From: Candidatus Omnitrophota bacterium
GTDB taxonomy: Bacteria > Omnitrophota > Gorgyraeia > JAGLLT01
Direction: 5' to 3'
Length of the DNA stretch: 64,000 nt
Assembly: GCA_030632085.1 (NCBI GenBank)
Contig: DAOVJY010000002.1
Location: forward strand, 77,325 to 141,324
The notes beneath the pieces were generated by a model that was not told where the DNA came from, did no database searches, and saw only the letters and a program-made list of their open reading frames with translations. Of the stretch, positions 959 to 55,993 are shown piece by piece (position 1 is the first letter of the stretch; every line of letters begins with the position of its first letter). Made by a program: the position numbers and the translations under genes.

Positions 959-960
959 TT

Positions 961-2688: not shown

Positions 2689-2840
2689 ATGAATAAGATA
2701 GTTAAGGCTGGTAGCTTGTATTTGATAATTGTTGTGCTTAAACTAAAACATCCCGCATACTGCGGGATTTAATTCTGGCAAATTACTTACATTCGCTTAC
2801 GCTCTGTAAGTAATGCCCTCATTAAAGGAGGTAACCGAAA

Positions 2841-4127: not shown

Positions 4128-4144
4128 AGAGCCGGTTGTTGGTT

Positions 4145-4173
4145 TTGGACATAGTTTAAGAATGTGGTATAAT
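4145..4173 (+). promoter_or_regulatory. Sigma-70-type promoter TTGGAC-N17-TATAAT upstream of the pilin gene array
   Basis: -35 TTGGAC at 4145-4150, a 17-nt spacer and -10 TATAAT at 4168-4173, about 20 nt upstream of the first pilin ATG. Confidence 0.55.
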
Positions 4174-4192
4174 ACGTTATAGAGGTATATGT

Positions 4193-4618
4193 ATGAAAAA
4201 CAACGCTTTTACTATAGTTGAATTAATGATTGTACTCATTATTATGGGTATTCTGATGGGGCTTACCGTAGGAGGAGCTATGAAGATTCTGCAGGAGGCC
4301 AAAAAAGGGCAGGCGGAGGCTGATATAGGTGCTCTTGAATCGGCTGTATCCAGGTATGAAAGGGATATTGGTAGTTATCCCCCTGATTCAGCTAACGGTT
4401 TATGGTATTATCTTGAGGATGATAGATCAGGAGATCCAACCGGTTGGGAAGGCCCTTATATTGATTTTGATGACGGTAGGACTTCAGATAATAATTATGA
4501 AGACCCCTGGGATAATAATTATCAGTATGATTGCACAAGTGTAACTAGGCACAATCTTGACTTTGTAGACATATGGACGACAGTTCCAAGTACAGGGGAT
4601 ACAATAGGCAATTGGTAA
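4193..4618 (+). CDS. GspG-type pseudopilin / major pilin paralog 1
   Basis: Prepilin N-terminus MKNNA|FTIVELMIVLIIMGIL, and GspG hallmarks DIGSYP, WEGPYI and DPWDNNYQY. The C-terminal tail is rich in aromatic and acidic residues. Confidence 0.8.
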   Translation: MKNNAFTIVELMIVLIIMGILMGLTVGGAMKILQEAKKGQAEADIGALESAVSRYERDIGSYPPDSANGLWYYLEDDRSGDPTGWEGPYIDFDDGRTSDNNYEDPWDNNYQYDCTSVTRHNLDFVDIWTTVPSTGDTIGNW

Positions 4619-4632
4619 AGAGGGTGTTTTAA

Positions 4633-5118
4633 ATGATATATAGTAATAAAAAGGCTTTTACATTAGTTGAAATGATAACTGTGATGGTTATTGTCGGTAT
4701 TTTATTAGGGCTTGTGCTAACGGGTTCTTTTAACGCGATTAAGGAAGCTCGAATTGAAAAAGCTAAAGCGGCAATGAAGGCGACTAAGGCGGCGTTAGAG
4801 ATGTTTGAATCGGATATTGGTGATTATCCCGTATATACAAATACATCCGGTAATGGAAATGATTTTAAGTCTTGGTTGATGAATGGGGATCATGCAACCG
4901 GTAATTATGACAACTGGTATGGGCCTTATATGAGTTTTATAGATGCTGAAATTTTAAGTAACACTCATTATTTGGATCCCTGGGGAAACGGTTATAGATA
5001 TTATCATGTAGCGGATACGGATGGCTATAATCTTTGGTCGTCCGGGCCGGATGGAAATAATGACAGCCTTGATGGTGAAAGCGGTATAATCGGAGATGAT
5101 ATAGGTAGTTGGGACTGA
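4633..5118 (+). CDS. GspG-type pseudopilin / major pilin paralog 2
   Basis: KKA|FTLVEMITV N-terminus; motifs DIGDYP, WYGPYM and DPWGNGYRYY; SD AGAGGG. Confidence 0.8.
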   Translation: MIYSNKKAFTLVEMITVMVIVGILLGLVLTGSFNAIKEARIEKAKAAMKATKAALEMFESDIGDYPVYTNTSGNGNDFKSWLMNGDHATGNYDNWYGPYMSFIDAEILSNTHYLDPWGNGYRYYHVADTDGYNLWSSGPDGNNDSLDGESGIIGDDIGSWD

Positions 5119-5123
5119 TAGAT

Positions 5124-5636
5124 ATGAAAAAAATAAAAGCTTTTACATTGATAGAGTTATTAATGGTAATGGTAATTATCGGTATTTTAGCTTCCCTGAT
5201 TACTACCGGGGCTTTTAGGTCTATAAGGGGTGCTCGGGAAAGCAAAGCACAGTCTGATATAGCGGCCCTGGAAACGGCCATTGAGAGATATAAATTAGAT
5301 GTGGGCGTATATCCTCCGGGAGACGGTTCAGGCAACAGCTTTAAGTACTACCTGCAGGATGACAGGAGTGTCGATACAACCGGCTGGAATGGGCCTTACA
5401 TGATTTTTAAAGCTAAGGATTTAAATGTTAACGCTTTTGTTGATCCCTGGGGAAGTGATTATAGATATTATCATGATCAGCTCACCACAGGGAAAGCGTA
5501 TTTGCATACCTACCCGGATACGCATATCACTCAAAATCCAATTGATATATGGTCTATTGGCGAAAACAAAACAGATGATGTAGAAACGACTAATTATATT
5601 AACACAGATGATGATATATACAGCTGGGGGGATTAG
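5124..5636 (+). CDS. GspG-type pseudopilin / major pilin paralog 3
   Basis: MKKIKA|FTLIELLMV N-terminus; motifs DVGVYP, WNGPYM and DPWGSDYRYY. ATG at 5124 is preferred over the ORF-track start at 5109. Confidence 0.8.
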   Translation: MKKIKAFTLIELLMVMVIIGILASLITTGAFRSIRGARESKAQSDIAALETAIERYKLDVGVYPPGDGSGNSFKYYLQDDRSVDTTGWNGPYMIFKAKDLNVNAFVDPWGSDYRYYHDQLTTGKAYLHTYPDTHITQNPIDIWSIGENKTDDVETTNYINTDDDIYSWGD

Positions 5637-5648
5637 TTGGTGATTAAT

Positions 5649-6179
5649 ATGAAAAAGAAATCTTTCACTCTTTTAGAGATGATGGTTGTCTTGGTTATTA
5701 TTTTTATAATAACAGCGATTGCGATGCCTAATTTCTGGGGAGGCTATAAGAGCAAGGAGGTTAAAGGTTCCGCGAGGAGAGTTGCCTCTATTTTAAGTAC
5801 CGCTAAAAGCTATGCCCAAGCTCAAAATACGCAGTATGATGTTGTTTTTTGGTATGGCGATAGTTTTCTTAGTATGGATATTTATAAAGAGTTTGATCCT
5901 TGGACTGAAGCGAGTTGGGATCGTAAAGTTGGAAAATCTGAAAAATTCAATTTTACGAAAGTTGGAATTAGTACTATAATTGATACACCCATTACTACAC
6001 CCATCAGCAATTATGCCTGGATATCATTCTATTCCGATGGGCGCGCTGATGATCATGATGCTAATCTTCCGGAAGATGAAGAGATTGTTTTTACGCTTGA
6101 TGTCGGTGGAACCCCCAAAACCCTTACAATATATATCAATGAAAACACCGGCTGTATAAGAGTTGGTGATTTAGAATAA
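5649..6179 (+). CDS. GspH-like minor pseudopilin
   Basis: MKKKS|FTLLEMMVVLVII prepilin N-terminus; about 175 aa, the size of GspH/FimT. ATG 5649 is preferred over TTG 5637. Confidence 0.65.
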   Translation: MKKKSFTLLEMMVVLVIIFIITAIAMPNFWGGYKSKEVKGSARRVASILSTAKSYAQAQNTQYDVVFWYGDSFLSMDIYKEFDPWTEASWDRKVGKSEKFNFTKVGISTIIDTPITTPISNYAWISFYSDGRADDHDANLPEDEEIVFTLDVGGTPKTLTIYINENTGCIRVGDLE

Positions 6180-6236
6180 TTGATTGCATATTTTCTTGCC
6201 TTTTTTATTTCCTCATGATATAGTTAGCTCCGCGTT

Positions 6237-6713
6237 ATGAGGAATTCAAGTTTAAAATCATCTTTCACTATAATTGAGCTGGTAGTCTGCCTGGTTATTG
6301 TGGGTACTATTTCAGCGGTAACTTTGCCGTATTGTTGGGGCGCTTACAGGTCTGCTGAAGCTAAGACTTCCGCCCGTGTTGTTGCTTCAATATTAAGAAG
6401 CACAAAAGAGAGTGCCCGGGCTCAAGGTAAGAAATATGAGATTATTTTTGCAGCTTGTGATAATAATCTTAATATTGATGTCTATACCAACTTATCAGAA
6501 GTTAATCCTTTGAAAGTAGGTAAGACCGAGAAACTATCCTTAAGCGGTTCATATGAATTTAGAATAACATTTTATAATGATAAAGCCATCTTTACTTCTT
6601 TTGGGACTTCTAACGGAGGGTCTGTTTATATTACTGATACTTCTACAGGCAAAGGTTATAGGATAAGTGTGTTATCAACCTCCGGCAGGGTTAAAGTGCT
6701 GGCTTTTGATTAA
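6237..6713 (+). CDS. GspH-like minor pseudopilin (second copy)
   Basis: SS|FTIIELVVCLVIVG N-terminus. It shares the core ARVVASIL..A with the previous gene, so it is a paralog. Confidence 0.6.
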   Translation: MRNSSLKSSFTIIELVVCLVIVGTISAVTLPYCWGAYRSAEAKTSARVVASILRSTKESARAQGKKYEIIFAACDNNLNIDVYTNLSEVNPLKVGKTEKLSLSGSYEFRITFYNDKAIFTSFGTSNGGSVYITDTSTGKGYRISVLSTSGRVKVLAFD

Positions 6714-6745
6714 TAGCGGTTAGATTTATTTTTCTTTTCTTATCA

Positions 6746-6774
6746 TTGATAAGTTTTGTAACTTGTGGTATTAT
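6746..6774 (+). promoter_or_regulatory. Candidate sigma-70 promoter TTGATA-N17-TATTAT
   Basis: Read directly from the sequence, upstream of the GspI-like gene. Confidence 0.4.
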
Positions 6775-6835
6775 ATACAGTAGAGATAGTATGCATTAAG
6801 TGAATATAATATTTTTTTTAGGAGGTTTATAAAAA

Positions 6836-7198
6836 ATGAGAAAAAAACAAGGGTTCACTCTTTTAGAAATAGTTATTGCTTTGGCTATATTAGCTATCGG
6901 CCTTGTTGGTATTTTAAGCCTTTTTCCGGTAGGTTTTGAGGCCTCAAGAAGGGCCAGTATGCTTACGGAGGCAACTATCCATGCTCAGCAAAAAATGGAA
7001 GAGTTTAAGCGAATCGGCTATGATGGCCTTTTTGATACAAATTACGCGGCATTTTCTGATAATAGTGGTTTGGAATGGAAGGTTACGGTTGTAGAAATAG
7101 ATCCTCTCGGGAATTTAAAAAGCGTAACTCTCGATATTCAATGGCAGGAGAAAGGGGACAATAAGAGTGAGACATTTGTTACTTATATCGCCAAGTAA
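6836..7198 (+). CDS. GspI/PilV-like minor pseudopilin
   Basis: MRKKQG|FTLLEIVIALAIL N-terminus; 120 aa, the size of GspI. Confidence 0.65.
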   Translation: MRKKQGFTLLEIVIALAILAIGLVGILSLFPVGFEASRRASMLTEATIHAQQKMEEFKRIGYDGLFDTNYAAFSDNSGLEWKVTVVEIDPLGNLKSVTLDIQWQEKGDNKSETFVTYIAK

Positions 7199-7817
7199 AA
7201 GAAAGGCTTTTACCCTTATTGAAATACTGGTAGCCAGTGTTATCCTGGTTATTATAGTTGGGTCTATGGCGGTAATTTTTTCGCAGGCTAATCGGTCGTG
7301 GAGTGAAACGGAAGCCAGATTACAGGTTTATCAAAATACCAGGGAAGTTATAAACGCGATCTCCAGAGATATTGCCTGCGCCTATCAAAGCACCAGCACT
7401 GTTGTTAAATTCGATTATGACAACATTGCTACTGATACTCTCTATTTTACCGCGGCGGTTAATACAAATTACGACACAAATGAATATGATTTAAGTATTA
7501 TCGGCTACAAAATAGACACCGCAACCAATACTGTAAAAAAATATAAAGAAGATTATGACGGAACACAAGCTGCCGGCTGGACACCAACTTCCGGCAATTG
7601 GAGCCCTTTGGCTGAGAATATAACCGGTTTGGCTTTTGAGTTTTATGACGCGGATCAGACAGTTCCCGGATGGCTTGTATCAGGTAGTAAATGGAATTCT
7701 AGTGTAGGTGTAAAAGATTATTTACCCCAGGCGGTTAAGATAACAGTTGATGCCGAGGATAAACAAGCTAGATTCAGTAGAACTTTTAATACCACTATCT
7801 ATATTCAGGCATACTAA
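7167..7817 (+). CDS. GspJ/PilW-like minor pseudopilin
   Basis: KRKA|FTLIEILVASVIL N-terminus; 216 aa. It overlaps the previous gene by 32 nt. Confidence 0.6.
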   Translation: MRHLLLISPSKRKAFTLIEILVASVILVIIVGSMAVIFSQANRSWSETEARLQVYQNTREVINAISRDIACAYQSTSTVVKFDYDNIATDTLYFTAAVNTNYDTNEYDLSIIGYKIDTATNTVKKYKEDYDGTQAAGWTPTSGNWSPLAENITGLAFEFYDADQTVPGWLVSGSKWNSSVGVKDYLPQAVKITVDAEDKQARFSRTFNTTIYIQAY

Positions 7818-7914
7818 TTTTGAGAGCATCTATTCAAATAATCAAGAAGTTACGCGGTAAATATGGCATTAACGGCTATGAAGAGAAGTTTCTAAATAAT
7901 CTAAGGTGGTAGAT

Positions 7915-10344
7915 ATGTTAGTAAATTTAAAAAAGAGAAAAGGTATTGCCCTGCCCCTCATCATAGGTATCATTGCTCTTTTGGTTATTATTGTAATGGG
8001 CTTAATAGTTGCTTTGAAGTATGAAACGATAAGCGTCATAGTATCTTCAGATCTACAAAAGGCCGCTTATCTTGCTGATTGCGGAATTAATAAGGCGATC
8101 GCTGGATTAAAAACAAAGGCAGGAAGTGATTTTATCTGGAGTGTAAATGATACAGGTCTAGATGATACTGATTGGTATGACGGATATAGCTGTAGTACCT
8201 TATTAAGTAATCTGGGTTCATATAATGCTAATATTATAGATTGTTCGAATCAGATATATGTTAATGGTGATAATACCGGTGATAGATTAGAAGATATGTT
8301 AAATATCTTAGGCGGAAATATTGGAGGAGGCTGTAGCGGCGATGAAGGAACCAAGATTATTAACAATCGCCCGACAGCCGGCTACGAGACCAAGAAACAG
8401 CTAAGAATTGCCTTAACCGACGGTGAATATAACGCTATTAAAGATTATGTGACAATCTGTAGCTATGTAAATAGTTCGTTTAACCGGGCCCCTATAAATG
8501 TCAATACGGCAAAGCAAGCTGTTTTAGAGACCGTCTTAGAGGGCATATCGGGTATCTCAGATGGGCAAGCAGCTACAGCCGCTAACGCCATTATGAATGG
8601 AAGCGATAAAAGGCCTTTTTCTGATTGGAGCGGTTTTGATACTTGCATAGACGGCACTCTTTTAACTTTAGGCGAGAAACAGTCTATCAAAGATAACTGT
8701 AATCCTAACTCTACCGCCTGGAACAGCACTACTGGAGCATATGAACACACTTCGGATACAACAGAATTCTGTTTTCACGCTGGAGGGTATTTTGAGATAG
8801 AGTCAGAAGGCACCTTTTATCAATCCGCCGCCCAAAGTATTATTCTTGCCCGGAAAAACATTGCTACTATAGTTCATACTCATAGTGTATTTAATAAAAC
8901 TACTAAAGCCGATTTTACCGCGGGGGATACCAATTTTGACGGAACAGAAGATATCGCGGGAGAAGGTGTACCTATCTATGGAAATGTCAACTGGCTTGAT
9001 TCTTGCCCTGTTGATTCGAGTGATGAAACTGGATTGTATTCTGATGAAGCTGCGGGAATATATGATGTAGATGAGACTGATAAATGCAAACCTTTATATG
9101 ATGTTATTCCCGGCTCAATAAAATTAGGTTTTTGGGATAATTGTGATGAGGAGAATGATAATACCGCTCAAACAGGTTGGAGCTGGGAGCACTGGATAGA
9201 TTCTGAAAGCGGCTCTCTTGCAATAGTTGACCGTGATTCAGATGGTGATTATGAATTGAGCTCGACTTCCAGCAACTCAGATTCTCATCTAGATCTTCTT
9301 GGGGTTCAACCCGACCAGTGGAATTGCGGCCAGAAATTCTCAATTAGATTATACGCTCATTTATATGAAGAAAAACCTCACCCATATATAGTTGCGGATA
9401 GTAGGCGATGGGGCGAGATTTATGAAGACGAGCAGCAGATAGAATTTGTCGGGATAGGCGGAACACCTGATATGCATAAGATGTTTGTAAGTCAGTTTAG
9501 ATGTGTATACTGGGGTGGTCCGGTGGATATAAGCGGCGGCGGATTGAACCCACCCGATGATTTTTTAGATACTATGCTTAGAATGATTTGGGATGGCGGC
9601 GGCGGAGAGCACTATGTTTATATGCATGATTTATATAGTTTACCTATTAATAGTGCTACATTACCCGCAGATGGTAATCGTATCCTTCCCTGGAATGTTG
9701 CTATGAGATTAGTTGTTGATGGAAGTGGTGACGGTAATTATACGGCATACCTCGCGGTTGATGACGGAGGCGCTTATCATGAATGGTATGCAGGAGATGG
9801 GGGCGAGTGGATTCCATGGAGCTGGCGGATTCATATGGTGAAGTATGACGCGGATGACCATGACTTCCATATCATGACAGATGTAGGCGATACTGACAGA
9901 TATGATTGTATGAATCATGACCAATCAGTCAATAAGTTTATAAAGACTGATTGGTTTCTACGCTTAAGAAATGATGTCCCAAGTTACAGCCGCTATCCAA
10001 TATGGGATGATGTCCGTATTATTCCTGATGAGGGATATTATCAATCACCTCAGTATAGTCCGACAGGAGGTTCTAATGTTGAATGGGGAGCTATAAACTG
10101 GACACTGACCATGCCAGATTCTGCAAGTTCTTCTTCAGAGACAGCTGAGGTTGAAGTTGATACAGGCAGTGGTTTTAGTCCAGTGAGCCAGAATGGTAGT
10201 ATAAATGCGGCTGCATCGAGTAATATAAAATATAAAGTTACTTTAAAATCAACCGATACAACTCATAAAGAAACACCTGTATTTGAGGATATAACGGTGA
10301 TTTATTTGCCGCAAACGAAAGTATTGTACCGGAGTGGGCAATAA
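7915..10344 (+). CDS. Giant GspK/PilX-like pseudopilin, putative pilus-tip protein
   Basis: Uncleaved hydrophobic N-terminus KGIALPLIIGIIALLVIIVMGLIVAL and a GspK-type HhH-like motif NVNTAKQAVLETVLEGISGIS. It occupies the GspK slot after the I/J-like genes. The central insertion of several hundred residues, rich in Cys, Asp and Gly, is unusual. ATG 7915 with SD AAGGTGG is preferred over GTG 7906. Confidence 0.55.
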   Translation: MLVNLKKRKGIALPLIIGIIALLVIIVMGLIVALKYETISVIVSSDLQKAAYLADCGINKAIAGLKTKAGSDFIWSVNDTGLDDTDWYDGYSCSTLLSNLGSYNANIIDCSNQIYVNGDNTGDRLEDMLNILGGNIGGGCSGDEGTKIINNRPTAGYETKKQLRIALTDGEYNAIKDYVTICSYVNSSFNRAPINVNTAKQAVLETVLEGISGISDGQAATAANAIMNGSDKRPFSDWSGFDTCIDGTLLTLGEKQSIKDNCNPNSTAWNSTTGAYEHTSDTTEFCFHAGGYFEIESEGTFYQSAAQSIILARKNIATIVHTHSVFNKTTKADFTAGDTNFDGTEDIAGEGVPIYGNVNWLDSCPVDSSDETGLYSDEAAGIYDVDETDKCKPLYDVIPGSIKLGFWDNCDEENDNTAQTGWSWEHWIDSESGSLAIVDRDSDGDYELSSTSSNSDSHLDLLGVQPDQWNCGQKFSIRLYAHLYEEKPHPYIVADSRRWGEIYEDEQQIEFVGIGGTPDMHKMFVSQFRCVYWGGPVDISGGGLNPPDDFLDTMLRMIWDGGGGEHYVYMHDLYSLPINSATLPADGNRILPWNVAMRLVVDGSGDGNYTAYLAVDDGGAYHEWYAGDGGEWIPWSWRIHMVKYDADDHDFHIMTDVGDTDRYDCMNHDQSVNKFIKTDWFLRLRNDVPSYSRYPIWDDVRIIPDEGYYQSPQYSPTGGSNVEWGAINWTLTMPDSASSSSETAEVEVDTGSGFSPVSQNGSINAAASSNIKYKVTLKSTDTTHKETPVFEDITVIYLPQTKVLYRSGQ

Positions 10345-10355
10345 AGGAGCAGGAT

Positions 10356-11453
10356 ATGAAATCTACAATTGTTATTCTGATAACGGTTATTTTTTTATTT
10401 ATGATAAGTCCCTGTTTCGCAAGCTTGCCAATAGATGAAGCCGTTGATGAATTTAGTCAAAGGCTGGGTAAGATTACAAGCGATGGTATAGATAAAGATG
10501 ATGCTGAAGATTATTTTGAGTTGGGTAAATTCTGTATAAAAAACGGCTTACTTGAACGCGCTAAGGTTATTTTAGAAAAAGCGGCCGGCCTCGATCCAAA
10601 ATATCAAGATAGAGTAGAACATCTTTTGGCTGATATAAAGGATAAAGAAGAGCGGGGTAAGGATTTAGGATTAATTTATTCTGCATATGATGATTACAAC
10701 TTAGGATATTACGGTGAGGCAAAGATAAAGCTTGAAGAGTTGATAGAGAAATATGAAGAAAGTGAATATGTCAATAAGGCAGAGAATCTTCTTGATGAAA
10801 TGAAAAATAAAACAGAAGATAAGCCCTTTCTTTTAACTCCTGTTACAGATAATCCGATGGAATTTAGAAAGTTTATCACCGATATTATAAAAGAAAAAGC
10901 AAAAGAGCGGAATTGTGATGTGAAAGAAATTGATGTATCAAAGGTAAAAGAGGAATATCTATCAAACCTCATTAAAAAGGCCGAATATTTTATCTCTGAC
11001 ATGACAGCCAAGAGCAACGGAGAAAGCTTAAACCAGGATTACCTTTTTTTTGCAATGAAGTGTACAGAGGTAGTTTTCAAATTGTCAGAAAATGAAAAAT
11101 TAAAAGAGAAAACAAAAGACATTCAAACCGAAGCCGCGAACAAGTTATTTACCGAGTACCCGTTGCCGGCTGATATAAAAAATCTGGATTTATATTATAA
11201 GAGGCTGCAGTTAGTAGATAATAAAGAAATTATTAAGAATATATGCGAGAAATATCTTAAACTTGGCAATGTTTATCTTGAAAGAGCCAATGAATCAGAG
11301 GGCCGGAAAAAGATTGATTATTTGGTCAAAGCTTATGATGTATTTGCGATGGTTAAAGATTACGCGAAATCCGATGAGATTAAGAATAAGGCCTTTAGAA
11401 AAATAAAATTGATTCAAAAAGAGAAGAGGAAAGAAGTAAGAAAATTAAGATAA
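10356..11453 (+). CDS. Secreted helical TPR-like protein, possible PilF-like pilotin
   Basis: Signal peptide MKSTIVILITVIFLFMISPCFA; helical, repeat-like composition. It lies inside the pilus locus. Confidence 0.35.
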   Translation: MKSTIVILITVIFLFMISPCFASLPIDEAVDEFSQRLGKITSDGIDKDDAEDYFELGKFCIKNGLLERAKVILEKAAGLDPKYQDRVEHLLADIKDKEERGKDLGLIYSAYDDYNLGYYGEAKIKLEELIEKYEESEYVNKAENLLDEMKNKTEDKPFLLTPVTDNPMEFRKFITDIIKEKAKERNCDVKEIDVSKVKEEYLSNLIKKAEYFISDMTAKSNGESLNQDYLFFAMKCTEVVFKLSENEKLKEKTKDIQTEAANKLFTEYPLPADIKNLDLYYKRLQLVDNKEIIKNICEKYLKLGNVYLERANESEGRKKIDYLVKAYDVFAMVKDYAKSDEIKNKAFRKIKLIQKEKRKEVRKLR

Positions 11454-11637
11454 ATAAATATAAGTTTAAACATTTTCTATAATAAAAAAAAGTTACCGGA
11501 ATTTTAAAGGGAATCAATTTTCTGTTGCTAAAATATACCCCCGTTTTCGGTGTTCAAAAAGCAGTGAATTTCTTAAGCGCATGCGTGAATGTGAAACGTT
11601 GATGAAATAGCGCCTCCCATCTAATAACCAATTTAAA

Positions 11638-11666
11638 TGTTGATTAACAAAAGAGTTTATTGTATA
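11638..11666 (+). promoter_or_regulatory. Sigma-70-type promoter TTGATT-N17-TATAAT upstream of pilM
   Basis: -35 at 11638-11643, a 17-nt spacer and -10 TATAAT at 11661-11666; pilM starts at 11717. Confidence 0.5.
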
Positions 11667-11716
11667 ATTACATTGATTTGTTTTAGCGATTAACACTTTG
11701 GAGATGATATAAACAA

Positions 11717-13375
11717 ATGGCAATTAAGAATTTAATCGGGCTAGATATAGGCCATAGCGCGGTCAAGTTAATAAAATTTAAGAAAGTCCGCAATAAAATA
11801 CAGCTTGAGAAGGCCCGAGTGGTTGAACTGCAAGATGGTGTTTCCCCTTCAGCGGCAATAGCCGCGCTTTTTAAAAGTGAACGATTAGGCGCTTGCAAAA
11901 TAGCTATATCCGTTTCAGGCCAGTCTGTTTTTACGCGCTATACAAAGCTTCCTAAAATATCCCAGAAAAAGATTGAACAAGTAGTTAAATATGAAGCCCA
12001 GCAGCAGATTCCTTTTCCGATTGATAAGGTTGTTTGGGATTATCAGCTATTTAAAATATCTAAAGGCTCTCAGTTGGAAGTTTTTCTGGCTGCCGTTAAG
12101 AAAGACATTATAGATAATTTATATCGCCAGGTAAACGCGATTAAAGGAGCTGAAGTTGTTTCTGTGCAGCCCGCGCCGGTAGCTCTTTATAATATACTTA
12201 ATTTTAATAAAGAAATAAACGATAAAACGGTTATTTTAGATATTGGAGCTAATGTTACCAGCGCTATCATTGCTAAAGGCAGGCAGTTGTGGATAAGAAG
12301 TATACCTATGGGCGGGGCCGAGTTAACCAGGGTTATAGGTGAAAGCCTGGCTTTAAAACCTCAGGAAGCGGAGATTTTAAAACGTAAAGAAGGTATCGTG
12401 TTGGCGGGTGTTACCGGTGATGAAGACCTGACTCCAAGGTCAGACGCGATTTCAAAGGCTATTAGTCCCGTGTTAAGTGAACTTTTATCGGAAGTTTCAC
12501 GTTCTATTAGTTATTATAAATCTCAATTTGATAAAGAAGCGGTTTTTGAGAAAGTGCTGCTGACAGGCGGCGGTTCTAAGATACGTTATATCGAAAGATT
12601 TTTTGAAGCTAACCTGAAGATAAAGACAGAAAAAGTCAATCTTTTTAAAAATTTAACCACTAATAAATACGTAAAAGCTAACATTGATGACATTGATGAT
12701 CGCTTGGCGGTTGCTATGGGCTTAGCCCTCCCGGGAGTAGAAACGCCGACTATTAATTTAAATTTGATTTCTGATCAACAAAGGAAGCTCAAAGACTTTT
12801 CAAAGAAGAAAGTATATATTACCAGCTCCGCGTTAATTGCTCTCGGTATTTTTGCCATGCTGAGTTTATGCAATGCGCAGGGAGTGAATTCAGCTGCCGG
12901 CAATCTTAAAGCTATATCTCTTGAAATGAATAAATACCGTGATAATCAAGTAACAATAAATGAGTTGCAAAACAGTATCAAGGCTGTAAAACTAAAGTTA
13001 AACTTTTTAGGAGATATTACTAAAGACAGAACAATCTGGCTGAATATATTATCAAGAATAAACGGTTCTTTGCCGGGGGATACTTGGTTAATCAGGTTTA
13101 GCACCGACGCGAATGAACCTAATATTATTATTTTAGAAGGTAAAACAACCGGCCCTTTTGATACAATTAAAAACTTCGGGGAAAAGCTTCTTAGCCTTGG
13201 GTTTTTTTCCGGCGTTGAAACTTTGCGGGCTGACAGGCCGTCGGCTGAAGAAGAAGAGTTAGGCGAGCCGTACAATATAGTGTTTACTTTAAAGTTGATG
13301 TTGAAAAACCCGGCTTCTAATTTTTTCATAAGAAAAGAACCTGTAGCCGCGGAAAACAAAAGAATTAAAAGATGA
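11717..13375 (+). CDS. pilMN: PilM-PilN fusion protein (actin-like ATPase fused to a TM coiled-coil domain)
   Basis: N-terminus LIGLDIGHSAVKLIK is a PilM/FtsA-like fold. An internal TM helix VYITSSALIALGIFAMLSLC at about aa 365 is followed by a PilN-like periplasmic region. Confidence 0.75.
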   Translation: MAIKNLIGLDIGHSAVKLIKFKKVRNKIQLEKARVVELQDGVSPSAAIAALFKSERLGACKIAISVSGQSVFTRYTKLPKISQKKIEQVVKYEAQQQIPFPIDKVVWDYQLFKISKGSQLEVFLAAVKKDIIDNLYRQVNAIKGAEVVSVQPAPVALYNILNFNKEINDKTVILDIGANVTSAIIAKGRQLWIRSIPMGGAELTRVIGESLALKPQEAEILKRKEGIVLAGVTGDEDLTPRSDAISKAISPVLSELLSEVSRSISYYKSQFDKEAVFEKVLLTGGGSKIRYIERFFEANLKIKTEKVNLFKNLTTNKYVKANIDDIDDRLAVAMGLALPGVETPTINLNLISDQQRKLKDFSKKKVYITSSALIALGIFAMLSLCNAQGVNSAAGNLKAISLEMNKYRDNQVTINELQNSIKAVKLKLNFLGDITKDRTIWLNILSRINGSLPGDTWLIRFSTDANEPNIIILEGKTTGPFDTIKNFGEKLLSLGFFSGVETLRADRPSAEEEELGEPYNIVFTLKLMLKNPASNFFIRKEPVAAENKRIKR

Positions 13376-14160
13376 AATTTTTTAAAGAACTGCTTCAGAG
13401 AAATTTAATATTTTTTATTGTAACAGCCTTACTGTTATTAGTGGTTGTTGCCGCCGGGGTTAATTTTGCTTCCGGCCTTGGAAAGAAATATTCCCTGGAC
13501 GGTAAAATCCAAAAAGAAATGCGGCTTTTAGATAATTTCAAAACGATAAAGGACGCGGCTCCAACTTTAAAATGGATAGATTATCTATCTAAAAAAGAAA
13601 AGCTTTTTGGTAAAATATATGTTGATGCCGGCTTACTGTATGATAAGCCGGCGTCTTTTATGCCAAAAGATATTATTGAACCTTTAAAATTCAAGGAAAA
13701 GATTTTTAAAAAGCAGAAGGAGATGCGTAAAAAGGCGTATTCCAGCCAGCTTGAATTAAAAGAAGAGGCTGTATCTTTTGGTTTTAAGGAATATGAAACC
13801 AAGATACCAACTGAAGCCGAAGTTCCAAATTTGACAAAAAAATTGGATATTATTCAAGAAGTAGTAAATCTTATGTGCCTCAGTCATATTGAGACCTTAT
13901 CTTCAGTTGAGTTTCTAACTCATAGAGATGACAAGTTGGAGACTATTCGGGGTAATATCAATTACAGAGTTTTTTCTTTAAGGCTTAGCGCAACCTCATC
14001 CGTGAAAAAATTGGTTGATTTATTATTCAAAATATCAACGTCGGATTATATATTTATAACCGAAGAATTAAATATCGCACAATCGGAAGATTTTAAGGAA
14101 AAAATAAATTCAAGTTTTGTTATTTCGTGCATAGTACTTATGGAGAGCGATGAAAAGTAA
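13372..14160 (+). CDS. PilO-like inner-membrane pilus assembly protein
   Basis: Single N-terminal TM helix LIFFIVTALLLLVVVAAGV followed by a soluble domain. Its position after pilMN and 4-nt overlaps with both neighbours support the call. Confidence 0.45.
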   Translation: MKFFKELLQRNLIFFIVTALLLLVVVAAGVNFASGLGKKYSLDGKIQKEMRLLDNFKTIKDAAPTLKWIDYLSKKEKLFGKIYVDAGLLYDKPASFMPKDIIEPLKFKEKIFKKQKEMRKKAYSSQLELKEEAVSFGFKEYETKIPTEAEVPNLTKKLDIIQEVVNLMCLSHIETLSSVEFLTHRDDKLETIRGNINYRVFSLRLSATSSVKKLVDLLFKISTSDYIFITEELNIAQSEDFKEKINSSFVISCIVLMESDEK

Positions 14161-14836
14161 TCCCTTATTATCCAATATAGAAAAAATAGTTTTCGGACTC
14201 TTGATTCTCATTTCATTAATTGTTATTGTAATCTATCAAGGGCGTATTTATATTAAAGATGAAACTATCAAAAATAAAATAGCCGGAGTTAAATTTAATT
14301 TACCTCCTGAAAAAATTGAAGGCGTTAAAGAATATAATGACTTAATCGCGCGGCTTAAGCGGTTAGATAGTTTTAGTAAATATGAAATCTATCTCGCGAG
14401 AAACGGTTTTCTGAAATATATTAAGCCGGTGCCCGAGATACCTCCATTTGAATTAAAGGCTGTCCGTAAAAAATATCTGGATGTGGAATATAGGGGTTTT
14501 ATAGAGTCTCTTTCGGGTACCGTTGCCCAGTTAAAGGTGAAAAACAGATCTTACTTCGTTAAAGAAGGCGATGAAATTGATGGCTATACAGTTAAAAAAG
14601 TATGTAATGATTATATGCTCATTAAAGATGGGGCCGGCGTTGAATACATATTGCCTTTAGGAGAAAAGATTTTAAGTAATGATTATGAGGCCGCGCTTTA
14701 CGTAAGTAAAACACATAAGACGGTTAAGGTAAAATTGGGTGATATTGTAAATGGCTTCAAAGTACTTGACATTTCACCTGAGAATGTGGTATTATATAAC
14801 CAAACTTATAATAAAAAACTAATTGTAGAGAAGTAA
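14150..14836 (+). CDS. PilP-like pilus assembly protein (putative)
   Basis: N-terminal TM helix IVFGLLILISLIVIVIY and a beta-rich C-terminal region. Its position between pilO and the secretin genes supports the call. Confidence 0.35.
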   Translation: MKSNPLLSNIEKIVFGLLILISLIVIVIYQGRIYIKDETIKNKIAGVKFNLPPEKIEGVKEYNDLIARLKRLDSFSKYEIYLARNGFLKYIKPVPEIPPFELKAVRKKYLDVEYRGFIESLSGTVAQLKVKNRSYFVKEGDEIDGYTVKKVCNDYMLIKDGAGVEYILPLGEKILSNDYEAALYVSKTHKTVKVKLGDIVNGFKVLDISPENVVLYNQTYNKKLIVEK

Positions 14837-14891
14837 CATAAGTGTGGACACAAGATGTTGCGATTAAGCTACTAAAAAAAGGAGAGTCTCA

Positions 14892-16001
14892 ATGTGCAGG
14901 CTTCTTAAAAAATTTACTGTATTAATTTGCTTAACTATAGTAATAGTCTTTGCTCTCAATAATATAGCCTATTCTCGAAGCAAAACAGACGCTGAAGATT
15001 TAGCCAAAAAGCTTGCTGTGCAGAAGAAGCTGGAGCAGGAAGAAAACGAGATATTGATAGATGGCCGTAATCAACGGGGCATTTATTATTTCAACAAAGG
15101 ATATTATAATGAAGCTATTCAGCAGTTTCATTTAGCCCTAGAGCTTGATCCCGGTAGTGCCGTAGCCAATGAATATCTCAATAAGGCATTGGAAAAACTT
15201 AGCAAGTCGGCTAAGAAGCATTATAAAAAGGGTGTGGCTTACTATAATAAGGGAGAAATGCAGAAATGTATTGATGAAATGTCTATGATACCCGTATGTT
15301 CTTCTTATTATCAAAAAGCGCAAGAGTATATTACATATTCTGATGAAGTATTGACCGAAGGTGCCGTTTATGGAATAAATAGCCCTAAAGCCGGAACACA
15401 GCACATTAAAGATCAAATGAGGCAAATGGACTCAGAGAAAGAGTTAGTTATGCTGCGCAAAAAAGCTCACGAGCAGCAACTCATGCTTGAAGTAGATTCA
15501 GCCTATTTACCCCCGGAATCATATGAAGAAGCAGCGGAGGAAGAAGCTATAAGCGCTGAAGAAATAGAAGAGCAGCAAAGAGAAGAAGCTCAGAAAAGAT
15601 TGCGGGCTAAGATGAATGAAAACATTGTTCCCGCTTTAAGTTTAAGTGATGCCGATATCAGAGATGTTATCAGGGAATTAGTTAAATTAACCGGTGTTAA
15701 TATCATTCTTGATGAAGGAGCTCTAAAGAAGGCATTAGAAGCCGGCATTATGACAGTGTCGTTTACTACCGTTACCCCCATGCCGCTTTTAGACTTATTA
15801 GATATTGCTTTAAAAACTTCCGATTTAACTTATAAAATGGAACCTACATATATATGGATCTCAGATAAAGAAACTATATATAAAGAAAACTTAGTCGTTA
15901 GGACTTATAAGCTTAAATATGGAGTAAGAAGCACTAGAAGTGTGCAGCTTACTCAATTTGGTGATGACGTGGATGATGACTTTGGTGATGATGATTTTTA
16001 A
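14892..16001 (+). CDS. Secreted TPR protein carrying a secretin/TonB N0-like (STN) domain with an acidic C-terminal tail
   Basis: Signal peptide and a TPR region (YFNKGYYNEAIQQFHLALELDP). The segment DADIRDVIRELVKLTGVNIILDEG...TVSFTTVTPMPLLDLLDIALKTSDLTYK matches the N0 domain of PilQ/GspD. The protein ends DDVDDDFGDDDF. Confidence 0.6.
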   Translation: MCRLLKKFTVLICLTIVIVFALNNIAYSRSKTDAEDLAKKLAVQKKLEQEENEILIDGRNQRGIYYFNKGYYNEAIQQFHLALELDPGSAVANEYLNKALEKLSKSAKKHYKKGVAYYNKGEMQKCIDEMSMIPVCSSYYQKAQEYITYSDEVLTEGAVYGINSPKAGTQHIKDQMRQMDSEKELVMLRKKAHEQQLMLEVDSAYLPPESYEEAAEEEAISAEEIEEQQREEAQKRLRAKMNENIVPALSLSDADIRDVIRELVKLTGVNIILDEGALKKALEAGIMTVSFTTVTPMPLLDLLDIALKTSDLTYKMEPTYIWISDKETIYKENLVVRTYKLKYGVRSTRSVQLTQFGDDVDDDFGDDDF

Positions 16002-16014
16002 CCTATAAAAGGCT

Positions 16015-17190
16015 ATGATAAGAAGAAAAATATTTATTATTATTCTGTTAGTATTAGTTTCAAGTAATGTTTGCTACGCGCAGGAAGGCATGAGTGTTAA
16101 GGAGTATTTAGAAGAAGCCCTTCCTTCTCAAGCCGGCAGAAAAATAGTTCTTGATAGAACTAGCGGTATTCTAACTGTAACCGATACTCCCTCTAATCAC
16201 AAACTTATCAGGCGTTTGATTGGGGAATTTGATGTTGGCCCGACTCAGGTTATGATTGAGGCTCGTTTTGTTGAGGTAAAAATTAACAATTTAGAAGAGT
16301 TGGGTACAGAGTTTTACTGGTACCAGCAAGGTGACGCTTCGGATGGTAGGATATTTAGAAGCCTTGAGGTGGGAGATGCTCCCGGTTTATATGATAGAGG
16401 CGCGTCGAGTTTCAGTGAGAGTTTAGAGACAACTGCCGACGGTATTCAATGGGGCTCTTACGATTCATCAGGTAATTACGAAGGTTTTCCGGCTGAAGGA
16501 TATGGAGCTGATTTTTTCTTTGGAAAAACCGGGTATGATGGAAATTTCTTAAGAGCTTATATACATGCTTTGGAAGAAAAAGGCAAGGCTAATACTCTTT
16601 CAGCTCCAAAGATTATGACAATGGCGGGCCAAATGGCTACTATGGAAGTTACCAGAACTTTTCCTTACGTAAGCAAGGTTGAACTTGAAAACCAAGGAAC
16701 TGCTGATGACCCGATTTGGAACTTAAAAACAACTATAGAAGAAAAGACTATTGGTATTTCACTGGAAGTTACTCCTCATGTGGCTTCCGGAAGCAAATTT
16801 ATAACTTTAGATTTACATCCTGAAGTTAATGTTTTATTAGATCAAAGGTCGATAAGACCATCTGTTGAAACAACATATTTTGATTTTGAGGATGGCGAGT
16901 ATATTTATTGGTCGAGGACTGTCCCAGGTATTCCAGATTCTGTAGGTTGGCCGACAGTAGATACCAGGTCTACGCAGACAACCGTAGTTACTCAAAGCGG
17001 CAGGACAATAATACTTGGCGGCATGATACGAGAAGAAGAGTCTGTAACGAACAAAAGCATTCCTATATTAGGAAGTATTCCCATATTAGGAAATTTGTTC
17101 AAATATAAACATGTTGAGAAGGAAAAAACAAATTTACTTATTTTTATTACCGCGACATTAATATCACCTGAAGGTGAAGAGATTAAATAA
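16015..17190 (+). CDS. Short secretin (PilQ/GspD family core), paralog 1
   Basis: Signal peptide; N1/KH-like domain (VMIEARFVEV); secretin C-domain motifs LSAPKIMTMAGQMATMEV and IPILGSIPILGNLFKYKHVEKEKTNLLIFITATLI. Only 391 aa, with no N0 domain. Confidence 0.85.
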   Translation: MIRRKIFIIILLVLVSSNVCYAQEGMSVKEYLEEALPSQAGRKIVLDRTSGILTVTDTPSNHKLIRRLIGEFDVGPTQVMIEARFVEVKINNLEELGTEFYWYQQGDASDGRIFRSLEVGDAPGLYDRGASSFSESLETTADGIQWGSYDSSGNYEGFPAEGYGADFFFGKTGYDGNFLRAYIHALEEKGKANTLSAPKIMTMAGQMATMEVTRTFPYVSKVELENQGTADDPIWNLKTTIEEKTIGISLEVTPHVASGSKFITLDLHPEVNVLLDQRSIRPSVETTYFDFEDGEYIYWSRTVPGIPDSVGWPTVDTRSTQTTVVTQSGRTIILGGMIREEESVTNKSIPILGSIPILGNLFKYKHVEKEKTNLLIFITATLISPEGEEIK

Positions 17191-18350
17191 TGAAAAAAAT
17201 AATAGTAATATTTTTTATTTTAAGTTTAATGTTAATTTCAATAAAAGTTGTCTCGGCTCAGGACGCGGATACCATTAAAGATTTTTTAGAACAAGTTTTG
17301 CCTCCGCAGCCGGGCAGAAAGATTGTTTTAAATTCCGCGACAGGGATGTTGACTGTAACAGACACGCCTTCAAATCACAAACTGGTAAGAGAACTCCTTG
17401 GAAAGTGGGATATTGGCCCGAGGCAGATATCAATAGAAGCTAAATTTGTTGAAATTTCTGAAGGTGTTTTAAATGAGTTGGGAATTGAATGGTATGGTAC
17501 CAGAAGCGATACTCAGCATCAGGTTGGTGTTGAAAGGCGAAAAAAGAAGCATAATTTTTATGTAGGCCAAGGACCAACAAGTGGTACAGGTAACGCGCAA
17601 CTAAGACCACCGGTATACGACCAAAGTACATCTGGCGCCTCAGCGGCGACAGATTATAGATATGATTCGTCATGGCCAACACCTCCCTGGAGCGGCACTG
17701 AATGGGGCGCCCCGGCAGATCCCGCGGGTTTGGGATTGTGGGTAGGAAAATCTTACCTTTCAGGTACTGAATTGTACGCGTATTTAAGGGCCCTTGAATC
17801 TGATAATAAAGTAGCTTTATTATCAGCGCCAAGAGTTACCACCTTATCAGGTCAGATGGCTAATATAGAATTAGCAACTACACAGCCATATGCTTCGGAA
17901 GTAAACCTGACAGATACAGGCGCCAGTTCTTTTGGGCATTATCAAACATATGAAATTGAAGAGAAGAAGACGGGTATATTTCTTGAGGTTACTCCCTCTG
18001 TTGCTGAAGGGGGTAATATTGTAACTCTTGATATACATCCGGAAGTTAGTGAAGTTGTCAGAAAAGTACCTTTATCAGATAGTACTCAATTCCCCAGTTA
18101 CTTAGGATGGCCTATTGTTGATATGCGCACAACTCAGACTACGGTTGCCGTAAGAAGCGGCCAAACTATCGTTATTGGCGGCCTTATGCAGGATAGTGAA
18201 GTCATGATAGAGCGTAAGGTACCTATTTTGGGTAGTATTCCAATATTGGGTAACTTATTCAAATATAAGTATGAGGAAAAAGAAAAAACTAACTTAGTAA
18301 TATTTTTAAAAGCGACTATAATTTCCGCCGACGGCAAGGAAGTTAAATAA
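17190..18350 (+). CDS. Short secretin (PilQ/GspD family core), paralog 2
   Basis: Same architecture as paralog 1 (ISIEAKFVEI, LSAPRVTTLSGQMANIEL, VPILGSIPILGNLFKYKYEEKEKTNLVIFLKATII), with a divergent, Gly/Pro/Trp-rich central insertion. Confidence 0.85.
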   Translation: MKKIIVIFFILSLMLISIKVVSAQDADTIKDFLEQVLPPQPGRKIVLNSATGMLTVTDTPSNHKLVRELLGKWDIGPRQISIEAKFVEISEGVLNELGIEWYGTRSDTQHQVGVERRKKKHNFYVGQGPTSGTGNAQLRPPVYDQSTSGASAATDYRYDSSWPTPPWSGTEWGAPADPAGLGLWVGKSYLSGTELYAYLRALESDNKVALLSAPRVTTLSGQMANIELATTQPYASEVNLTDTGASSFGHYQTYEIEEKKTGIFLEVTPSVAEGGNIVTLDIHPEVSEVVRKVPLSDSTQFPSYLGWPIVDMRTTQTTVAVRSGQTIVIGGLMQDSEVMIERKVPILGSIPILGNLFKYKYEEKEKTNLVIFLKATIISADGKEVK

Positions 18351-54120: not shown

Positions 54121-54783
54121 ATGACAGCTAAAAAAAGCCTTAAATTTTTGATTTCCGCTGGGCCTACCAGAGAACCTATAGATCCTATAAGGTATATTTC
54201 CAACTATTCTACCGGTTATTTGGGTTATGAAATGGTTCTGGCGGCAAAAAAGAGGGGGCACAGGGTTGTTTTGGTGAGCGGCCCGACAGCCTTTAAGAAA
54301 CCCGCGGGTATTAAGAGTATTGATGTAATTACCGCCAAAGATATGCTCAAGGCTTTAAAAGATAATATAAAATGGGCTGATTGTCTTATAATGACCGCGG
54401 CTGTTTCTGATTTTCGTCCAAAAAAAGCTCAACTAAAGAAAATTAAGAAAGATACTCAAAAAACAACCCTTCAGCTTGTAAAAAATCCGGATATATTAAA
54501 AAGTCTTAAACCATATAAAAAAGGTAAAATTTTCATCGGCTTTGCTTTGGAAACCCATAATCTGTATGAAAATGCCAAAAAGAAACTCAAAAGCAAGGGG
54601 TTGGATATAATAGTAGCTAATAAGAAAGGGAGTAAATCAGCTTGCTTCGGTGAAACAGATAATACATACTATATTATAGATAACTCTTTTAATAGCAACA
54701 TCTTAAAAGATAAATCAAAAAGTTATTTATCACAGTACTTAATTGACAAATCCTTTAAGGTATGGTATAATTTGTACAAGTGA
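54121..54783 (+). CDS. coaB: Phosphopantothenate-cysteine ligase (stand-alone)
   Basis: LISAGPTREPIDPIRYISNYSTG. It is separated from coaC by a TAA stop plus 1 nt. Confidence 0.85.
   Translation: MTAKKSLKFLISAGPTREPIDPIRYISNYSTGYLGYEMVLAAKKRGHRVVLVSGPTAFKKPAGIKSIDVITAKDMLKALKDNIKWADCLIMTAAVSDFRPKKAQLKKIKKDTQKTTLQLVKNPDILKSLKPYKKGKIFIGFALETHNLYENAKKKLKSKGLDIIVANKKGSKSACFGETDNTYYIIDNSFNSNILKDKSKSYLSQYLIDKSFKVWYNLYK
54743..54771 (+). promoter_or_regulatory. Perfect consensus sigma-70 promoter TTGACA-N17-TATAAT inside the coaB 3' end
   Basis: -35 TTGACA at 54743-54748, an exact 17-nt spacer and -10 TATAAT at 54766-54771. It drives the DUF1559 pilin pair. Confidence 0.6.
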
Positions 54784-54820
54784 GAAAAGGCTGATAAAAT
54801 TGGATAAAAGAAGGGTGTTG

Positions 54821-55234
54821 TTGGAGCGCCCGATAGATAAAAGTTATACTTTAGTTGAACTACTAATGTCGCTCTCTGTTATATTTATTCTTTTGGGGCT
54901 TATGTTACCCGGTGTTTTCGGGATTAATAAGCAAGCGATAAAAACGCGATGCGCTAATAATCTCAGGCAAATTTCACAGGTTTTAAATGCCTGGGCGGTG
55001 AGCCATGAATATTTTCCCGAAGATTTTAGGGAGTTGGTTGAAAAGGGGTATATAAGCGATTTAGACGCTTTTAAATGCCCATATAGAGGCTCTATTGATG
55101 ATTATGAGTTTCTAATTAAGGGCAAAAAGGTTAGTAATGTTGGTGCAGGTGCAGCTATAGTTTACTGCCGTCATTGTAATATGTTGGTTTTTATGGATAC
55201 TCACGTTGAAGAACATAAATGGAAAATTCCGTAA
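54821..55234 (+). CDS. DUF1559-type prepilin-like protein (planctomycete-type H-X9-DG pseudopilin domain)
   Basis: KS|YTLVELLMSLSVIFILLG followed by LMLPGVFGINKQAIKTRCANNLRQISQVLNAW. TTG 54821 with SD AGAAGG is preferred, because the ORF-track start at 54743 is the -35 box. Confidence 0.6.
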   Translation: MERPIDKSYTLVELLMSLSVIFILLGLMLPGVFGINKQAIKTRCANNLRQISQVLNAWAVSHEYFPEDFRELVEKGYISDLDAFKCPYRGSIDDYEFLIKGKKVSNVGAGAAIVYCRHCNMLVFMDTHVEEHKWKIP

Positions 55235-55253
55235 AAGGAAGGAGGTGGAGAAG

Positions 55254-55664
55254 ATGAAAAACAAAAAAGGTTTTACACTCGTAGAATTAATGATAGTTAT
55301 GGTTATTATAGGTATCTTGTTAAGCCTGTTACTTCCGGGTGTGTTTACCGCTCGTCAGGAAGCCTTGAAGACTCAAGTGGCCAGTAACCTGCGTCAGGTA
55401 GGCATTGCTTTATATGCCCATGCTAAGAATAGCAATGGGGCTTTACCTGCTAACTTAGCTGCTCTAGATCCTACTTATATTGAGGGTATAGCAGACATTA
55501 ACAAAAATATTGATGGTGACCCTTTCACTTTCAATGAAGCAACCAGTAATCTCTATAGCTTAAGTGCAAGCACTGTATTAGTTACTGATGATAGCATTAT
55601 TAGTGGTACTAATGCAACCGGTTATACACTTAGAGCGGATGGTTCTGTTAATACAAGTATTTAA
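55254..55664 (+). CDS. DUF1559-type prepilin-like protein, second copy
   Basis: MKNKKG|FTLVELMIVMVIIGILLSLLLPGVFTARQEALKTQVASNLRQVGIALYAH; C-terminal RADGSV (a DG motif). ATG 55254 follows the SD AAGGAGGTGGAG. Confidence 0.7.
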   Translation: MKNKKGFTLVELMIVMVIIGILLSLLLPGVFTARQEALKTQVASNLRQVGIALYAHAKNSNGALPANLAALDPTYIEGIADINKNIDGDPFTFNEATSNLYSLSASTVLVTDDSIISGTNATGYTLRADGSVNTSI

Positions 55665-55711
55665 TGTGAATGTAAGTTTTTATAGGCATTAACATTAAAT
55701 AGTTAATTGAA

Positions 55712-55748
55712 AGAGCGCTTAAAGAGTATTTTTAAGTGCTCTTTTCTT
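55712..55748 (+). terminator. Rho-independent terminator after the DUF1559 pair
   Basis: 12-bp stem AGAGCGCTTAAA / TTTAAGTGCTCT with one mismatch, loop GAGTATT, followed by TTTCTT. Confidence 0.6.
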
Positions 55749-55750
55749 GA

Positions 55751-55860
55751 TATCAGCACACAAGACATAAGTCATACCCTTGCAGGGCACAGGCAAGTCA
55801 CAAGAAACAAGTCATAAGGCACAAGCAAAAAAACAAGATGCAAACAATTACCAATGGCCA
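55751..55860 (+). repeat. A/C-rich modular spacer
   Basis: CACAAGACATAAGTCATACCCTTGCAGGGCACAGGCAAGTCACAAGAAACAAGTCATAAGGCACAAGCAAAAAAACAAG. Confidence 0.7.
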
Positions 55861-55993
55861 AATTCAATTCCGCTTCGCCCGCATCAGCCTTTGACGGGCT
55901 TAATCCTGTTTTTTGGCCCTTTTTCACTTGACTTTTGGCTTGTAAGTGATAAATTGATATCAAGTTTATATTTAAAGTCTATATAGTCATGCT

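Follow-up and report, generated by a model that had tools for sequence, protein, structure and literature searches.

A 64,000-nucleotide (nt) stretch of a Candidatus Omnitrophota genome (assembly GCA_030632085.1, contig DAOVJY010000002.1, positions 77,325 to 141,324 of the forward strand), referred to here as the window, carries two adjacent genes on the + strand, ORF1 and ORF2, which encode paralogous prepilin-type proteins of 137 and 136 amino acids (aa). On the sequence evidence, the label that suits the pair best is miniature DUF1559-N-like pilins, rather than DUF1559 / H-X9-DG proteins. What is new here is a miniature pilin variant that, as judged by profile comparison, shares the helix continuation of DUF1559 without most of the DUF1559 domain. 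The two genes form a conserved pilin unit that is placed among housekeeping genes and is probably strongly expressed. The complete reading, in which these miniature DUF1559-N-like pilins would be co-transcribed and then assembled by the pilus machine at 2-18350, is favored with moderate confidence. The positions of the features are listed in Table 1.

A first-pass annotation, made from the letters of the window alone, had proposed two prepilin-type paralogs at this site, and this proposal is borne out. The N-terminal motifs are present in both proteins, the mutual identity is ~28-29 % over the full length, and each protein has full-length homologues. Each consists of a short basic leader, a cleavage site (G/F in ORF2 and S/Y in ORF1, the slash marking the cut), a Glu at +5, and an N-terminal helix of ~50 residues. 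Past the helix there is a head of ~65-70 residues, the last strand of which ends in D-(G/T)-x-V. ORF2 passes the pilin superfamily test by hidden Markov model (HMM), with 41.4 bits for PF07963 (cut-off 21.2) and 35.3 bits for TIGR02532 (cut-off 16.3); ORF1 has the motif KS/YTLVELL with Glu at +5 and a score below the cut-off. In the AlphaFold2 models of ORF2 and ORF1 (predicted local distance difference test, pLDDT, 80.5 and 82.2), a helix of ~50 residues, two short helices, and a sheet of 2-4 strands can be seen, the sheet of ORF1 being small. The modelled proteins have the long N-terminal helix and the small beta-sheet head of a pilin-like build. The best match of both models in a Foldseek search of the PDB was Thermus PilA4 (6xxd; template modelling score 0.43-0.58), and no solved DUF1559-like head was present among the PDB matches. 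The matches of a profile search of PDB sequences cover the N-terminal helix of various pilins alone, with Geobacter pilin domain 1 among them, and no link to conductive pili was drawn from this.

ORF2 represents the canonical form of the pair. Its N-terminus reads MKNKKG/FTLVELM and the helix continues as LLPGVFTARQEALKTQVASNLRQVGIALYAHAKNSNGALP. Ser, Thr, and Asn are abundant in the head, which contains no Cys and ends in ADGSVNTSI; the single His of the protein is located in the helix, and no motif His exists. Some 30 orthologues match over the full length (127-142 aa), and those that are named come from Omnitrophota. Among these orthologues the identity is 94 % for residues 1-28, 79 % for residues 29-66, and 38 % for the head, where insertions and deletions also occur. 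The strong promoter, the consensus Shine-Dalgarno sequence, the immediate terminator, and the near-invariant helix with its variable head suggest that ORF2 probably serves as a filament subunit that is abundant and exposed at the surface.

ORF1 differs in several respects. A gene start at 54743 had to be abandoned, as this position is that of the -35 hexamer and of a mechanically listed TTG open reading frame. All orthologues of ORF1 begin at MERP, with an ATG there in the related locus L001; therefore, the true start is the TTG at 54821. The N-terminus MERPIDKS/YTLVELL is made up of the leader MERPIDKS and a mature start YTLVELLMSLSVIFILLGLMLPGVF; the cleavage site is Ser-Tyr and not Gly-Phe, and the orthologue in L004 has G/F. 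The exact protein (P0063) and 7 orthologue clusters were found, all starting from MERP, with 65-78 % identity and 36 invariant columns. Four Cys are invariant, namely C44 in the helix, C86 in a KCP motif, and the pair C116-x-x-C119, and His128 is invariant as well. In DUF1559, the counterparts of C44 and C86 are the conserved C and the CP. The head of ORF1 is 61 % conserved among orthologues. This even conservation and the four invariant Cys suggest that ORF1 is probably a conserved, lower-copy structural partner of ORF2.

The Ser at -1 of ORF1 was considered as a sign of decay and dismissed. Among the 7 pseudopilins of the pilus locus (4193-7817), 6 do not have Gly at -1, four of them carrying Ala and two Ser, which suggests a prepilin peptidase of relaxed -1 specificity in this lineage. 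As Ser or Ala at -1 is common in these pseudopilins and the orthologues of ORF1 remain 65-78 % identical, ORF1 does not appear to be decaying. A wider form of the decay explanation holds that ORF1 is decaying or unprocessed, that the promoter match arises merely from the coaB coding sequence, and that both genes are the tail of a coaBC operon. On the side of the proteins, it draws on the TTG start of ORF1, its Ser-Tyr site, and its sub-threshold N_methyl match, against which stand the orthologue identity, the 36 invariant columns including four Cys, and the Ser or Ala of the other pseudopilins. Its second half depends on the promoter.

The promoter is a perfect 12/12 match to both hexamers and has an extended -10, with TG at 54763-54764; transcription would start near 54778. 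The window has 2 perfect TTGACA-N17-TATAAT sites versus 0.00 expected (100 shuffles). The other one is at 34964-34992 (+), upstream of an open reading frame at 35046-36380. Both hexamers are kept, at the same place, in all 8 related lineages (8/8). Thus the own consensus promoter claimed for the pair is upheld, and it recurs across relatives. The promoter sits within the final codons of coaB, and these codons encode a conserved I/L-D-K...L-W/C-Y-N/T tail; additionally, no terminator was found in the interval between coaB and ORF1. These are the points by which the promoter could be seen as a coding by-product and the pair as an operon tail. Three observations argue for constraint at the DNA level instead. 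The Asp codon in the -35 is GAC in all eight lineages, although GAC makes up only 18 % of Asp codons in the genes of the window. In L169, the -10 lies past the end of coaB and nevertheless reads TATAAT. In L087, decay has turned the ancestral -10 into TACACT, and a perfect TTGACA-N18-TATAAT has newly arisen downstream. Considering the proteins and the promoter together, the explanation by decay and operon tail is very improbable. Since the promoter lies inside coaB and no terminator precedes ORF1, read-through from coaBC is possible and may add to expression.

The module ends in a hairpin, and the terminator claimed by the first-pass annotation is likewise confirmed. The hairpin, at 55709-55745, has a stem of 14-17 bp (inverted repeat I3, 93 % complementary) and is followed by a U-rich tail. 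The region 55660-55765 folds at -28.7 kcal/mol (z = -4.2), and none of 200 shuffles was as stable. The same core (AGCACTTAA / AGCGCTTAA) recurs in a hairpin directly 3' of the type 2 (ORF2-like) gene in the five loci L001, L002, L169, L170, and L172. The whole module from promoter to terminator is therefore kept across related Omnitrophota loci.

Gene order in relatives was taken from nine exact-protein look-ups, in which the type 2 proteins are 46-77 % identical to ORF2. In all nine loci (9/9), the pilin gene or genes are upstream of thrS and, where the contig extends that far, downstream of coaB. The longer loci display the order yicC-remA-gmk-rpoZ-coaC-coaB, then 1-3 small pilins, then tRNAs, then thrS-infC-rpmI-rplT; the tRNA genes at the site were confirmed in L001, L002, L004, and L087. 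The Kappaea-like clade usually has three genes at this site: type 1 (ORF1-like, with four Cys), type 2, and a type 3 beyond the hairpin. From this comparison, the window is taken to have lost the type 3 gene, and no remnant of it was detected downstream of ORF2 by tblastn. A profile scan of genome contigs with the family alignment, and of metagenome contigs with ORF2, returned, among the matches listed, generic pilin N-terminal peptides and no useful Omnitrophota loci.

The central question is the relation of the pair to DUF1559. The first-pass annotation had assigned both proteins to the DUF1559 / H-X9-DG architecture, and this assignment holds only in part. The cut-offs used were 23.3 bits (gathering) for PF07596 and 19 bits for TIGR04294, with reporting at E <= 10 for the window proteins. 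PF07596 matched neither ORF1 nor ORF2 at E <= 10. TIGR04294, the H-X9-DG model, gave no match for ORF1, ORF2, or five relatives, and the controls P0041 and P0039 scored 22.8 and 19.5 bits. A Pfam/NCBIfam scan had been named beforehand as the check on the assignment, with a match to N_methyl alone as the result that would speak against it; N_methyl is indeed the sole Pfam match. In relatives, 13 of 26 have weak PF07596 matches, the best with 21.0 bits and E 3.8e-4, which is below the cut-off. The PF07596 matches of the mini-proteins are limited to profile positions ~2-41 of 268, that is, to the helix. Indeed, ORF1 and ORF2 have only ~105 residues past the membrane segment, as opposed to the ~268 positions of the DUF1559 domain.

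The helix is the part in which the likeness is specific. With hhalign, the family profile aligned to the DUF1559 alignment at 99.9 % over 71 columns. After removal of the N_methyl and membrane segment, the value for DUF1559 was still 98.9 % (E 1.2e-17), compared to 0.6 % for the three GspG paralogues of the window. The trimmed profile still fits DUF1559 and does not fit the GspG of the window; therefore, the LLPGVF...NLRQ motif represents a specific DUF1559-type helix continuation. It occupies the second half of the helix and is elsewhere typical of DUF1559 proteins from the PVC group. This part of the earlier claim stands, except that ORF1 reads MLPGVF in place of LLPGVF. The head, i.e. the globular part, reaches only 19 % (E 1e-3) against DUF1559 on its own. 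In greedy alignments, KCP motif and terminal DGxV strand follow the order that they have in DUF1559, and the more distant orthologues end in H-x6-DGHVE. The last strand is thus probably shared by the mini-pilins and DUF1559, so far as these alignments indicate. The C-terminal DG motif that had been claimed for both proteins is correct for ORF2, which ends in ADGSVNTSI, and incorrect for ORF1, which ends in D-T-H-V.

An exhaustive profile search of 1.8 billion representative proteins returned 304,241 matches at E <= 1e-3, with 11 at E <= 1e-30. Ten long matches of 294-390 aa, among the best, were sampled; PF07596 was found in 8/10 and the whole domain in four (316-390 aa). Ten full-length mini matches of 131-153 aa were also sampled, one of them from a Lentisphaeria bacterium; 8/10 pass PF07596, over the first ~40 positions only.

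According to one alternative, ORF1 and ORF2 are true DUF1559 / H-X9-DG members, functionally equivalent to the expanded paralogues of Planctomycetota and simply missed by the HMMs. The helix alignments at 98.9-99.9 %, the weak PF07596 matches in half of the 26 family members, the 8/10 distant mini-relatives that pass the cut-off, and the shared order of KCP and DGxV strand all agree with it. Nevertheless, both models are silent on the two proteins under conditions in which the controls score, the PF07596 matches of relatives stop at the helix, and the head contributes little. The size of ~135 aa compares to 316-390 aa in the sampled matches and to 330-384 aa in Rhodopirellula baltica (PMC2754498). 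Moreover, the motif His is missing in ORF2, ORF1 reads H-x7-D-T, and each site holds 1-3 genes, not tens. True membership is consequently regarded as unlikely.

A second alternative considers the proteins generic minor pseudopilins, or ComGC-like competence pilins, with an incidental resemblance to DUF1559; they would serve DNA uptake or secretion instead of building a major filament. GspG and ComGC are the best NCBIfam matches, some relatives match ComGC over positions 2-78 of 84, one source labels an ORF1 orthologue as ComGC, and the proteins are small. The scores of 29-45 bits are nevertheless far from the cut-offs of 75-89. For ComGC (NF040999, cut-off 75), ORF1 reaches 29.2 bits and ORF2 35.1 bits, with a range of 29-41 bits when relatives are included. 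TIGR01710 (GspG, cut-off 88.85) gives 41.7 and 23.1 bits on the two proteins, over positions 1-62 of 134, which is the helix; apart from the sub-cut-off ComGC matches, all matches end in the N-terminal helix. PF08334 (T2SSG) matches the three locus paralogues at 4193-5636 and neither ORF1 nor ORF2, and the profile without membrane segment fits DUF1559, not the GspG of the window. A promoter that is both strong and conserved, together with a variable head, also speaks against a low-copy minor subunit. This alternative is accorded a low probability, about as low as that of true DUF1559 membership.

Machinery for assembly is present in the same window, ~36-54 kb upstream of the pair; the statement of the first-pass annotation that the pair is far from the pilus locus is correct. 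The machinery comprises a PilT-like ATPase, GspE/PilB with an MshEN domain, GspF/PilC, three T2SSG pseudopilins, H/I/J/K-like minor pseudopilins, PilM, and two secretins, and as predicted from these domains it is complete in the window. The secretins are two tandem genes at 16015-18350 encoding 391 and 386 aa, both short for secretins. In another lineage, the related mini-pilin P0098 adjoins a GspE ATPase gene.

As miniature DUF1559-N-like pilins, ORF1 and ORF2 would be co-transcribed from the conserved, near-consensus extended -10 promoter in the 3' end of coaB, and transcription would end at the hairpin directly past ORF2. Both proteins would enter the inner membrane, where a prepilin peptidase would cut and N-methylate them. 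The cleaved pilins could then be polymerized by the GspE/GspF/PilM/secretin/PilT machine at 2-18350, with ORF2 as the abundant exposed subunit and ORF1 as the lower-copy partner. Several points weigh against this scheme. The N_methyl score of ORF1 (PF07963) is 15.8 bits, under the 21.2 cut-off, and its residue at +1 is Tyr. The Foldseek pilin matches are weak, with E 0.1 and 0.03, and largely helix-based. The promoter is inside coaB, and the CoaB tail could therefore account for some of the promoter conservation. Three T2SSG-type pseudopilins are encoded in the pilus locus itself and are alternative candidates for the major subunit. Lastly, a motif search for G-x-GD-x-K, the only search made for a prepilin peptidase in the window, yielded nothing credible.

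Table 1. Features of the pilin unit, its flanks, and the presumed assembly partner (window positions).
Feature	Position	Strand	Description
Sigma-70-type promoter	54743..54771	+	-35 TTGACA 54743-54748; 17-nt spacer; -10 TATAAT 54766-54771
ORF1 (type 1)	54821..55234	+	137 aa; TTG start; preceded by GAAGGG (54810-54815)
ORF2 (type 2)	55254..55664	+	136 aa; ATG start 8 nt past GGAGG (55241-55245)
Weaker A+U-rich hairpin	55655..55704	+	Overlaps ORF2 stop; inverted repeat I1; 18-nt arms, 89 % complementary; z = -2.8
Intrinsic terminator	55710..55750	+	Arms 55710-55723 / 55731-55744; 7-nt loop; U-rich tail UUUUCUU
coaB (DFP domain)	54121..54783	+	PF04127 on identical gene in L086; 3' end carries the promoter; stop 54781-54783
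Type IV pilus / type II secretion (T4P/T2SS)-type machinery	2..18350	+	Pfam scans and translations; presumed assembly partner

The placement of the pair between coaB and a tRNA cluster, as given in the first-pass annotation, is also correct. The genes upstream are coaC and coaB, with Flavoprotein and DFP matches in L086 (same contig), and those downstream are tRNA-Cys, tRNA-Leu, and tRNA-Val; an Rfam scan of 54600-56900 found these three tRNAs and nothing else. The tRNA cluster has a conserved promoter-like site at 55928-55955 (CTTGACT...TAAATT/TAGATT); in L001, L002, L004, and L087 its counterpart comes directly past the pilin terminator, with no gap between the terminator and the CTTGACT -35. 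In the window, ~186 nt (55745-55930) separate the pilin terminator from the tRNA-Cys promoter, and as the orthologous sites in the four loci have no such stretch, it looks like an insertion. Elsewhere at this site, L087 (4235-4915) and L169 (2520-3140) each contain an open reading frame with faint or weak LAGLIDADG_3 matches between the pilins and thrS, in the tRNA region; these may be homing-endonuclease-like insertions.

A dispersed short repeat with units of the type ACAAG(T/A)CA was also observed on the + strand at 34522-34584, 39369-39505, and 50165-50213. Further copies are found at 55762-55847, 56117-56135, and 56691-56716, and in L001 at 395-469 and 5514-5546. A 19-mer of the repeat matched 8 times versus 0.02 expected. 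Most copies are between listed open reading frames, with one inside a listed frame. The repeat may be an element like a repetitive extragenic palindrome or a miniature inverted-repeat transposable element (REP/MITE-like), or a protein-binding motif.

The lineage marker proposed for the pair, a group of the Planctomycetes-Verrucomicrobia-Chlamydiae (PVC) type, agrees with the organism. By source names and taxonomy, the family belongs to Candidatus Omnitrophota, one of the PVC phyla, and the host of the pair is a Kappaea-like Omnitrophota bacterium. For Omnitrophota, pilus systems have been counted with the genomic features that may point to symbiosis (PMC10066038); this gene pair is not among the systems reported in that survey. 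In public sources the proteins are labelled 'type II secretion system protein' or 'prepilin-type N-terminal cleavage/methylation domain-containing protein', and from the view of annotation they are an ordinary, if tidy, prepilin-type pair that is so labelled already.

The interest of the pair rests on its position and its build. It holds a fixed, strongly promoted site in a PVC phylum other than Planctomycetota, and its ORF2 type may be the filament subunit that Omnitrophota cells expose. A relative of ~135 aa, reduced to helix signature and terminal strand, would also be a convenient minimal model of DUF1559. In a bolder version, ORF2 would be the major type IV filament subunit of Omnitrophota, with its promoter hard-wired in the coaBC-thrS neighborhood, and the family would be the minimal DUF1559 core, consisting of the helix signature, the CP loop, and the terminal DGxV strand. 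This version is put forward tentatively and is not expected to hold in full. If true, it would provide a small and tractable model for DUF1559 function in PVC bacteria, and it would identify the surface antigen with which these cells, ultra-small and possibly host-dependent, make contact with their partners.

Among the known systems close to the pair is DUF1559 (PF07596, SBP_bac_10), with members in Planctomycetota and other PVC bacteria. In both, the prepilin N-terminus is followed by LLP-x-V...A...C/x-x-NL[KR]Q-x-G-x-A...Y/A...G-x-[LF]P, and also common to both are a CP motif, which ORF1 retains, and DGxV at the end of the last strand. The difference is one of size and number: ORF1 and ORF2 are ~135 aa, the full DUF1559 matches sampled are 316-390 aa, and 1-3 copies at one conserved site contrast with 68-74 paralogues per planctomycete genome (PMC10632474, PMC2754498). 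DUF1559 is the largest paralogue group in planctomycetes; Planctopirus limnophila has 68 members, of which two are essential (PMC10632474), and R. baltica has 74 copies (PMC2754498). Neither paper gives a tested function for the DUF1559 proteins, and the literature found on DUF1559 / H-X9-DG consists of mentions in genome surveys (copy number, expression), with no functional work. With the H-X9-DG family (TIGR04294), the pair shares a D-G-x-V strand at the extreme C-terminus; it differs in that no family member matches the model, ORF2 having no motif His and ORF1 reading H-x7-D-T. GspG/PulG (PF08334, TIGR01710) is similar in size, in the class III signal peptide, in the long N-terminal helix, and, presumably, in its dependence on GspE/GspF-type machinery. 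It is separated from the pair by the lack of a T2SSG domain match in ORF1 and ORF2 and by the 0.6 % obtained for the profile without membrane segment. PilA4 of Thermus thermophilus (6xxd) and ComGC resemble the pair as stand-alone, strongly promoted, and terminated units with a conserved core and a variable head; they are set apart by the weak Foldseek E-values and by ComGC scores far under the cut-off, and in the role of filament subunit the pair is a candidate.

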